Assembly: GCA_963750185.1 (NCBI GenBank)
Contig: CAVVPV010000004.1
Span: 137,584 to 201,583, forward strand
Direction: 5' to 3'
Origin: an uncultured Verrucomicrobiae bacterium
GTDB taxonomy: Bacteria; Verrucomicrobiota; Verrucomicrobiia; Chthoniobacterales; JAFAMB01
DNA: 64,000 bases
The notes under the pieces are model-generated. The model saw nothing but the letters and a program-made list of their open reading frames with translations, searched no databases and had not been told where the DNA came from. This document shows positions 55,665 through 56,263 of the stretch, piece by piece. The first letter of the stretch is position 1, and every line of letters begins with the position of its first letter. Both the position numbers and the translations under genes were made by a program.

Positions 55665-56263
55665 GGAATCAGGAGTCAGGAGCCAAGAAGTCAAGGAGCC
55701 AGGAGTTCACTGTAGGGCGAGGACTTCGCCTACTCGTCCGGTTTTCCGACTAGAACCCTGGATTGGAAGCCAGATGCGGAAATGCTTCTGGCAACTCTGG
55801 CGTGACAAGAAAGGACGCTGGAAGAAGCTCCAAGAGCTTGGCATCCGCGGTCAGGCCAGGACTTCCCCTACCATGAAATCTTCATCGTATTGAACCCGAG
55901 TGATCACCATGCACAGACCGGAAAGCCGCCGTCTCCTTCGACAACTCCTGACTCCTTGACTCCTTGACTCCTTGACTCCTTGACTCCTGACTCCTTGACT
56001 CCTTGACTCCTTGACTCCTGACTCCTGACTCCTGACTCCTGACTCCTGACTCCTGACTCCTGACTCCTGACTCCTGACTCCTGACTCCTGACTCCTGACT
56101 CCTGACTCCTGACTCCTGACTCCTGACTCCTGACTCCTGACTCCTGACTCCTGACTCCTGACTCCTGACTCCTGACTCCTGACTCCTGACTCCTGACTCC
56201 TGACTCCTGACTCCTGACTCCTGACTCCTGACTCCTGACTCCTGACTCCTGACTCCTGACTCC
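55665..56263. repeat. Fold-back composite repeat, copy 2 (core inverted), with a long (GACTCCT)n array
   Basis: Short AGGAGTC-like arm 55665-55706, core 55707-55943, right arm with 35 perfect GACTCCT units from 56013 to 56257. Confidence 0.9.

Follow-up and report, generated by a model that had tools for sequence, protein, structure and literature searches.

Several described systems come close to the locus analyzed here. Group II intron remnants, such as those of RmInt1 in Sinorhizobium, are non-functional pieces of the intron ORF that lie in intergenic, repeat-rich DNA and decay neutrally (PMC4181065). Group IIC introns target hairpins (PMC4748821) and have been reported downstream of terminators or other inverted repeats (PMC1702495). 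GTAG-tagged REP palindromes and their tyrosine transposases have been described, Verrucomicrobia included (PMC3733652). Finally, there are MITEs that contain, or end in, tandem repeats (PMC4596501, PMC3879986), and REPs are on record as targets of insertion sequences (PMC1525189).

The locus lies in a 64,000-nt stretch of the genome of an uncultured Verrucomicrobiae bacterium (Chthoniobacterales), hereafter the window, and comprises two cassettes, A and B, in inverted orientation. Like the RmInt1-type remnants (PMC4181065), each cassette holds a non-functional piece of an intron ORF in intergenic, repeat-rich DNA, apparently subject to neutral decay; unlike them, it retains only about 114 nt of the ORF and no ribozyme part, and has been copied within another repeat. 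Our preferred reading is that a relic of ~114 nt of a group II intron maturase (domain X) is held in the loop of a REP-like hairpin within a MITE-like repeat, that it probably got there by homing, decay and copying, and that it is passive today.

The features of both cassettes are collected in Table 1. In cassette B, two 18-mers read directly from the window, GGCGAGGACTTCGCCTAC (part of the hairpin GTAGGGCGAGGACTTCGCCTAC) and GGCCAGGACTTCCCCTAC, are identical at 16 of 18 positions, with 120 nt between them, confirming the pair claimed in a first-pass annotation of this DNA. With up to 3 mismatches allowed, the first 18-mer has three sites in the window (55716, 55854 and, on the minus strand, 51856), compared with a mean of 0.04 in 100 dinucleotide shuffles, none of which reached 3. 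The frame starting at 55735 reads RPVFRLEPWIGSQMRKCFWQLWRDKKGRWKKLQELGIRGQ and belongs to a 78-aa ORF (55657-55893). The inverted cassette noted in the same annotation is also real, and larger than stated there: the arms of the inverted twins (51624-51836 and 55752-55964) are 213 nt long and 94% complementary, and by blastn the similarity of A and B reaches 329 nt at 93.3%. The second 18-mer of cassette A has drifted, matching the first at 14 of 18 positions by eye. Tandem arrays of the heptamer AGGAGTC/GACTCCT flank both cassettes; the outer array of cassette A begins 2 nt past the stop of a 2-hydroxyacid dehydrogenase gene, and its inner array abuts the stop of proS.

Table 1. Coordinates of the two cassettes and of the adjoining features in the window
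Feature	Position	Strand	Remarks
Heptamer array (AGGAGTC)n, outer ('right') side of inverted cassette A	51519..51644	.	16.9 units
Conserved 3' module, cassette A	51639..51713	-	Family profile positions 70-144
Interior of cassette A (unit 2, maturase-derived segment, unit 1)	51717..51873	-	
REP-arm-like unit 2, cassette A	51717-51734	-	
REP-arm-like unit 1, cassette A	51856-51873	-	
Heptamer array (ACTCCTG)n, inner ('left') side of cassette A	51884..51977	.	12.9 units
Degenerate left heptamer array, cassette B	55665..55706	.	Terminal inverted repeat
GTAG-tagged REP-like hairpin GTAGGGCGAGGACTTCGCCTAC	55712..55733	+	Holds 18-mer unit 1 (55716-55733)
Group II intron maturase ORF fragment (domain X tail)	55747..55860	+	~114 nt
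18-mer unit 2 GGCCAGGACTTCCCCTAC	55854..55871	+	Family's own REP-arm unit
Conserved 3' module, cassette B	55875..55950	+	Family profile positions 70-145; ends ...CCGCCGTCTCCTTCGACAAC
Right heptamer array (ACTCCTG)n, cassette B	55944..56263	.	44.7 units, 98% matches
IS110-family element inside array	56264..57772	-	Truncated at both ends
Heptamer array resumed beyond the IS110 copy	57773..57817	.	6.4 units

The cassettes are embedded in the gene order epimerase (minus), 2-hydroxyacid dehydrogenase (plus), A, proS-M20 peptidase-epimerase (minus), B, IS110, thioredoxin and purA. Gene order and orientation are the same in G007, a genome of the same genus, while G009 and G014 have the purA to proS part in common with it; in all three, the orthologous purA..epimerase-M20-proS region is free of cassettes, arrays and IS110, which implies that the block is an insertion. 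Since the relative gene orientation is the same in G007, we rejected the idea that the inverted twins had inverted the proS block.

Judged by its similarities, the 40-residue reading bracketed by the 18-mers genuinely derives from a group II intron maturase, corresponding to the tail of domain X. We searched this genome and 60 relatives (61 genomes) by tblastn with the 78-aa ORF. The only matches at E <1e-4 in reading frames outside this genome were three in G007 (E 5e-8, 53% over 38 aa, ORF residues 31-68) and two in G057 (about 2e-5); one stop-ridden stretch was also matched in G040 (E 3.7e-5). The matching frame on contig C3 of G007 is that of a 438-aa protein, reading ...LSGWIRRHRRKCFWQRWHNRKGRRKAMRRLGIRGKA..., which sits between RF02001 (group II D1-D4, 88.6 bits) and RF00029 (domain V/VI, 44.5 bits), and RF00029 was also found at one of the two G057 loci (43.1 bits). 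The piece retained in cassette B aligns without gaps to residues 361-398 of this intron-encoded protein, and the identity of the cassette peptide to its nearest intact intron protein is 53-56%. In the reciprocal tblastn, the G007 protein recovered both cassettes from the 4.0-Mb genome (E 7.6e-8 and 5.2e-7), ranking after the two resident RT genes.

A phmmer search with 52 aa against 1.84 billion (1.84e9) representative proteins gave 31 matches at E<=1e-3, of which 21 carry GIIM and one carries RVT_1 only, making 22 of 31 maturase or RT proteins; three others are TPR or FG-GAP repeat proteins, each matched in several stretches, and six are without a Pfam family. In the GIIM-bearing matches, the aligned region is the C-terminal end of GIIM. 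The likeness to maturases proposed in the first-pass annotation was thus borne out by tblastn in both directions and by the phmmer matches. The GIIM profile itself (PF08388), to which the peptide had been likened, does not score it: hmmscan of the 78-aa ORF returned 0 families at E<=10. This was to be expected, since the peptide can cover no more than about the final 35 of the 80 positions of the profile.

The segment is nevertheless a dead relic, and no intron is present at the cassettes. Rfam found nothing in the window at gathering score and nothing at E<=1 over 51400-56400, so that no ribozyme domains (D1-D4, DV/DVI) were detected flanking the cassette ORF. As positive controls, the same library recovered RF00029 in the resident intron of contig C37 (51.7 bits), RF02005 on contig C16 (55.3 bits), and both RF02001 and RF00029 around the intron protein in G007. 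An RT domain is absent from the cassette reading frame: the G007 protein aligns to the cassettes over residues 361-407 only, and tblastn found no further pieces of it near them. Genome-wide, RVT_1 matches are confined to contigs C37 and C33, which hold an intact intron (RVT_1 143 bits, GIIM 55 bits) and a broken one, respectively. Neither resident intron could be linked to the cassette, either by blastn of 55640-55990 or by tblastn of the ORF, and BLASTP of the 78-aa ORF against the C37 maturase gave an E value of 3.2. Among all 43 genomes of the taxonomic family, no parent intron closer than the G007 copies was found, and a word-indexed protein search for longer relatives of the peptide yielded no candidate. 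The parent intron sought in this genome did not turn up: the assembly, which leaves 13% of the genome unassembled, holds no similar intron, those on C37 and C33 being unrelated.

Nor is the segment a gene: the maturase frame is not conserved, being broken in two of the three cassette copies. It is open, with an ATG, in copy B, and one could imagine that the 78-aa ORF encodes a small RNA-binding protein derived from the maturase. We regard this as extremely unlikely, because its N-terminal 26 residues come from the degenerate heptamer array and the REP hairpin, its frame is interrupted both in copy A, where there are a 1-nt insertion and a TAA stop, and in the copy on C16, and the product has no Pfam match.

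The right-hand 75-90 nt of the cassette (55875-55950) proved to be the conserved 3' module of a dispersed repeat, and the cassette represents one sub-type, assembled in three copies, of an element family of ~30 copies. With a profile built from 7 typical copies, nhmmer found 30 matches in the genome at E<1e-3; 7 span the full ~145-nt profile and 4 nearly so, while the others have only the last 35-100 nt in common, joined to varied left-hand modules. A typical copy reads (GGAGTCA)n GGAGTTGCAGGAGTTCAGGA ... CCGCCGTCTCATTCTGCAAC TCCTGA(A)C(TCCTGAC)n, so the family ends are inverted repeats of heptamer-like units. The genome has 21 clusters of at least 3 perfect heptamer units, 14 of them within 300 nt of a family match, and 14 of the 30 family matches have a cluster nearby. 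In BLAST searches with a full copy, the family was present in 12 of 18 same-genus genomes and in both genomes of sister genus g5, and in 0 of 40 other relatives of the taxonomic family and order. Thus, among the genomes searched, the repeat is restricted to a lineage of two genera. When 185,579 species genomes were scanned for an exact pattern, 28 loci matched. The element is present at 16 of them, in three Chthoniobacterales/Verrucomicrobiae MAGs; the other 12 are without heptamers and look like chance matches within genes.

The elements are small, non-coding and present in many copies, and they have terminal inverted repeats; we read the family as a MITE-like DNA repeat of ~150-330 nt with mosaic interiors. 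These traits, together with the microsatellite-like arrays, are those of the MITEs that contain or end in tandem repeats (PMC4596501, PMC3879986), the difference being that here the inverted ends are themselves heptamer arrays, of 3 to 45 units; the elements are MITEs by form and copy number. We infer their putative mobility from the distribution of the copies only. The borders of individual elements are blurred by their array ends. The neighboring IS110 element has no sequence in common with the family. The possibility that the 3' module is an intron 3' end (DV/DVI), with the left truncations representing 5'-truncated retro-copies, was rejected, because RF00029 gives no match and the 'truncated' copies hold other modules within the same inverted ends. 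A full-text literature search found no published description of the heptamer-bounded family. It is thus undescribed, whereas an intron remnant inside a REP/MITE-type mosaic is a combination of known kinds.

The heptamer-bounded elements, cassette included, might instead be genes for a structured non-coding RNA, in which the maturase-like piece is a variable insert. A transcript of cassette B would indeed fold as a long stem through its inverted arrays (-140.7 kcal/mol, z = -6.0), and the interior fold pairs GUAGGG.GAGG with unit 2 (z = -2.9). However, RNAalifold of 17 full-length members from 6 genomes gave only -3.14 kcal/mol with an unfavorable covariation term (+0.45), and its consensus keeps just the terminal inverted repeat and one small hairpin. 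Rfam, applied to 20 family loci, returned nothing but an adjacent intron fragment and two weak matches to microRNA models, and left halves are swapped wholesale between copies. The family shows no conserved RNA fold, and we consider RNA genes improbable.

The 18-mers themselves are REP-like in form, not in copy number. Unit 1 is a short palindrome ending in GTAG on the other strand, and the whole of GTAGGGCGAGGACTTCGCCTAC is a short GTAG-tagged palindrome; the genome has two families of such palindromes as well as Y1 transposase genes, all of which recalls the GTAG REPs, REPINs and RAYTs described in PMC3733652. The first, abundant family has the form GTAGGCGAAGCGTCC..GCAAAGCG(A/G)GGACGCTTCGCCTAC, and the motif CTTCGCCTAC, with 94 occurrences in the genome, resides mostly in this one long palindrome. 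The second family, GGTAGGGCGAGGCTCCGCCCGAGCCG..CGGCTCGGGCGGAGCCTCGCCCTACC, has a 17-nt right arm that often recurs in tandem. Unit 1 of the cassette is the arm GCGAGGACGCTTCGCCTAC with two bases missing. Unlike GTAG REPs as described (PMC3733652), the exact 18-mer occurs in the cassettes only, and its units are direct repeats split by foreign DNA: at up to 2 mismatches the two 18-mers have 5 and 4 genome matches, 4 of which are the units of cassettes A and B, and beyond these there is one stray site. Of the original description of the flanks as REP-like, then, the GTAG hairpin and the resemblance of both units to arms of the GTAG-REP families of this genome stand, but a dispersed 18-mer does not.

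Y1_Tnp (IS200/RAYT-type) matches number four in the genome and none in the window. A candidate for an association with a RAYT gene is a frame that, by eye, ends in ...NPVRAGLV... and abuts the family copy at C28:168412.

Several members of the repeat family have the palindrome of the second GTAG family just upstream of the 3' module. In the copy on contig C12, GGGCGAGGACTTCGGCAAGCTAAGTCCCTACCCTACCGTG directly precedes the module, so that the unit is present once, with no maturase piece. It follows that unit 2 is native to the element, and the maturase insert plus one unit looks like an addition. When the segment 55707-55875 is folded, a stem forms between the GUAGGG arm and unit 2, with the maturase piece as its loop. 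The C12 copy also led us to reject a reading of unit 2 as the 3' strand of an intron domain VI, suggested by its likeness to ...GTCCCTACCCCTAT in the C37 intron, because there the unit exists without any intron piece. A 17/18 match of unit 2 of copy A to a glycosidase-like gene beside a G007 intron was treated as a coincidence.

A third, degenerate cassette was found on the minus strand of contig C16, at about 9330-9790. Its collinearity with A and B extends from the left inverted repeat, by way of the two 18-mer-like units and the maturase piece, as far as the first part of the 3' module, and it contains ~110 nt of extra sequence and several stops. Since all three copies have the same junctions, the chimera must have arisen once and then been copied within the whole element. 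The amplification proposed in the first-pass annotation therefore holds insofar as a chimera with common junctions exists in three copies, but the unit that moved was the whole heptamer-bounded element rather than a REP-spacer-REP. Copies A and B, only 3.9 kb apart, are each other's closest relatives, and either local transposition or gene conversion between two pre-existing members would explain this closeness.

Contigs of four soil metagenomes were also compared with 54900-55943, the uncovered parts being uninformative. The cassette was confirmed in two runs, with other contexts hinted: contigs from two runs carry an A-like cassette that has an IS end directly next to its left array, an arrangement absent from the assembly. 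In run X7, a contig from a ~98%-identical strain departs from the window at about 55659, and its next 23 nt resemble the left module of C12/C1-type copies, a weak hint that the B site may be able to hold an insert-free family member.

Having one type of insert bears on function. A retroelement piece between similar repeats, in both chromosomal orientations, had suggested a repeat-spacer-repeat system whose RNA would serve as antisense or 'memory' against group II introns resident in the genome. The layout is all that speaks for such a role. Instead of varied spacers, each cassette has two units and one spacer, and the insert is the same in all three copies, whereas a CRISPR-like system would have diverse spacers matching mobile elements. 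Moreover, the assembly offers no similar intron as a target, the C37 and C33 introns being unmatched by the searches above, and the copies are decaying. The idea of a memory or of an antisense RNA thus finds no support, and we deem a role of this kind very unlikely. The other option raised at the time, passive cargo, agrees with what we observed, namely a dead fragment with a decaying frame in two of three copies, carried along with its host repeat.

How did the fragment arrive? In the preferred scenario, a hairpin-targeting (IIC-like) intron would have homed into one member of the family, directly 3' of the point where its REP-like hairpin ends in ...CCTAC. Deletions would then have left only an internal maturase piece of the homed intron, and the relic-bearing repeat would have been copied to at least three places, via transposition or gene conversion among family members. 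The fragment would today have no activity, being passively carried and decaying.

The evidence for this scenario comes from where introns of the lineage sit. In G007, each of the three intron copies directly follows a REP-like hairpin (...GCAAAGCGGGACGCTTTGCTTA, then GTGTG), one of them ~60 nt from the right end of a family member, and the resident C37 intron starts immediately after ...GAGCGCGTCCCTAC, with GTGCG as its first nucleotides. A group II 5' fragment (RF02005, 55.3 bits) lies within the right array of the family copy C16:6316. The relic in the cassette is itself sense-oriented and begins 13 nt after ...CTTCGCCTAC. Because related and resident introns are found directly 3' of such hairpins, homing followed by decay and by copying of the host repeat is, we infer, the most likely history. 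The closest intact intron (G007, three copies) and the C37 intron both begin at the 3' edge of an inverted repeat, and the relic follows a hairpin by 13 nt in the same orientation; these positions are reminiscent of group IIC targeting (PMC1702495, PMC4748821); the hairpins here, however, are GTAG-type REP-like palindromes rather than terminators with T runs, and the class of the parent intron is putative.

Some observations fit this history less well. No intron 5' end (GUGYG) and no domain V/VI remnants were found flanking the fragment, and with no intron termini left, homing and decay would need two deletions ending close to both REP-arm units. Group II homing makes no target duplication, and the 16/18 direct repeat around the insert resembles a target duplication or a template switch more closely than it does the outcome of homing. 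The peptide is also only 53-56% identical to the nearest intact intron protein, which makes the parent intron and its target preference putative, and the GIIM profile does not score it.

A serious rival, close to the view of the first-pass annotation, is therefore capture: a piece of an intron ORF would have been inserted between two REP-arm units and then amplified, the agent of insertion being illegitimate recombination, a template switch in the course of repair, or a REP-associated tyrosine transposase (RAYT). In the latter case the transposase would move a REP-spacer-REP unit, with the fragment again as passive cargo. Capture would account for the direct repeat that flanks the insert like a duplication and for the C12 copy, which has the unit once and no insert. 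It also suits the tandem copies of the 17-nt arm that occur naturally in the second REP family, the mosaic interiors of the family, where different left modules are joined to one 3' module, and the four Y1_Tnp matches in the genome. On the other hand, no RAYT gene adjoins the cassettes, and the three copies are alike well beyond the 18-mers, in the left inverted repeat and the 3' module, which means that the moved unit was the whole element. Furthermore, introns of this lineage land exactly at the ends of REP hairpins, as independently evidenced by the G007 and C37 copies. Overall, we consider capture by template switching or REP-mediated movement possible but rather unlikely. Under either history, homing or capture, the fragment is passive.

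Elements of the IS110 family are known to prefer repeated palindromes for insertion and are guided by bridge RNAs. The element at 56264-57772 was assigned to this family by the Pfam domains DEDD_Tnp_IS110 and Transposase_20. Further copies on contigs C1, C28 and C29 are 99-100% identical to it over its 1509 bp and extend beyond it, by ~270-290 nt on the transposase 3' side and by 61 nt on the other, to a total of ~1.84-1.86 kb; the added sequence encodes the C-terminal 78 residues of the transposase. In the window copy, the transposase frame continues instead through the heptamer array to 55882. Each of the three full-length copies sits where a heptamer run ends (...CTGA(A)C followed by TTCCAAGG...), a behavior similar to the palindrome preference of the IS110 family, except that the apparent target here is a heptamer array and not a REP hairpin. 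The window copy departs further from such inserters, in that it is truncated at both ends and yet bounded by arrays on both sides. The 302-nt non-coding end of the full element contains no perfect 6- or 7-mer of the heptamer, and so no guide could be read off.

These associations raise a more speculative thought, namely that the heptamer-bounded repeats serve as lineage-specific landing pads for RNA- or hairpin-guided mobile elements and then spread guest fragments round the genome. The candidate guests may be IS110-family elements and group II introns homing beside REP hairpins. As the arrays in the window directly abut an IS110 copy truncated at both ends, they may be actively extended or recombined. 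We hold the landing-pad idea to be doubtful, and offer it with corresponding reserve.

The relic itself matters little, being one more decayed group II intron fragment and an instance of ordinary biology. Still, it provides a worked example of how the repeats of little-studied soil Verrucomicrobiota (Chthoniobacterales) gather and redistribute the debris of mobile elements. The by-product of the analysis is more interesting: an undescribed, heptamer-bounded family with a recurrent association with IS110 elements and group II introns. If these repeats do attract such elements, they would represent natural 'safe-harbor' sites, as well as a handy marker of strain-level rearrangement in uncultured bacteria.

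At the IS110-family copy in the window, heptamer arrays (tandem AGGAGTC/GACTCCT units) stand in place of both ends of the element. Compared with the full-length element, which spans ~1.84-1.86 kb on contigs C1, C28 and C29 of the source genome, the window copy (56264-57772) is missing the last 78 transposase residues, and its transposase frame continues into the array as (SGVRSQE)n.

The target of the full-length element itself looks like a heptamer array: at each of the three copies, a heptamer run ends at the element, with ...CTGA(A)C followed directly by TTCCAAGG.... The 302-nt non-coding end of the element contained no perfect heptamer 6-7-mers. 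Two of the full-length copies, those on C1 and C29, have another IS110-type element immediately after them, the transposases being ~35% identical. In metagenome contigs from runs X1 and X4, an IS110 end (...CCCAAGTTCCTTGGAA) lies directly before the left array (GTCAGGAGTC) of a cassette resembling cassette A, the inverted maturase-relic repeat of the window, at a point corresponding to window 55686. This junction is not found in the assembly, implying that further cassette copies or strain variants exist.

Group II introns were also found beside repeats. The ~300-nt segment with the intron 5' fragment on C16 is inserted into the right-hand heptamer end of a copy (C16:6316-6390) of the heptamer-bounded, MITE-like family. 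Upstream of the intact resident intron on C37 there are ~6 tandem repeats of ~57 nt each, ccggtagggacgcgctccagcgcg...gaggagttgcaa (region C37:~70900-71330), and the intron starts immediately 3' of a hairpin (...GAGCGCGTCCCTAC, then GTGCG).

Locations of the repeat-associated elements (G000, source genome)
Feature	Location	Strand	Remarks
IS110-family copy	window 56264-57772	minus	without either end of the full element
Heptamer arrays adjoining it	window 55944-56263 and 57773-57817		equal orientation; one at each truncation point
Full-length IS110 copies (n = 3)	G000 C1:~32160-33998; C28:~166477-168316; C29:~39324-41161		
Locus with group II intron 5' fragment	G000 C16:6283-6760 (extracted locus L050 2283-2760)	minus	RF02005, 55.3 bits
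~62-nt GTAG palindrome copies	window 898-963, ~8781, ~9235		
Second GTAG hairpin family	G000 C27:10495-10590, 26245-26280; C28:169083-169390, 172257-172316; C9:33540-33800		

Two GTAG-tagged repeat families were also present. One, a palindrome of ~62 nt (GTAGGCGAAGCGTCC..GCAAAGCG(A/G)GGACGCTTCGCCTAC), is abundant genome-wide, and most of the 94 genomic occurrences of the 10-mer CTTCGCCTAC fall within it. The other is a long hairpin, GGTAGGGCGAGGCTCCGCCCGAGCCG..CGGCTCGGGCGGAGCCTCGCCCTACC, whose 17-nt right arm occurs in tandem copies. One copy of this hairpin is preceded by a reading frame ending ...NPVRAGLV..., whose last residues, in our reading, resemble those of a REP-associated tyrosine transposase.

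G007, a genome of the same genus, has a 17/18 match (GGCCAGGACTTGCGCTAC, encoding GQDLRY) to the second, REP-arm-like 18-mer of cassette A on contig C3 (L007 1021-1038), inside a glycoside-hydrolase-like gene adjoining an intron copy; we regard this match as coincidental. On contig C7 of G007, the region 3' of proS (L098 7703-7800) holds another heptamer-type tandem array, of GTTAGTT-like units, together with REP-like hairpins. The intergenic site downstream of proS is one that gathers repeats in more than one species.
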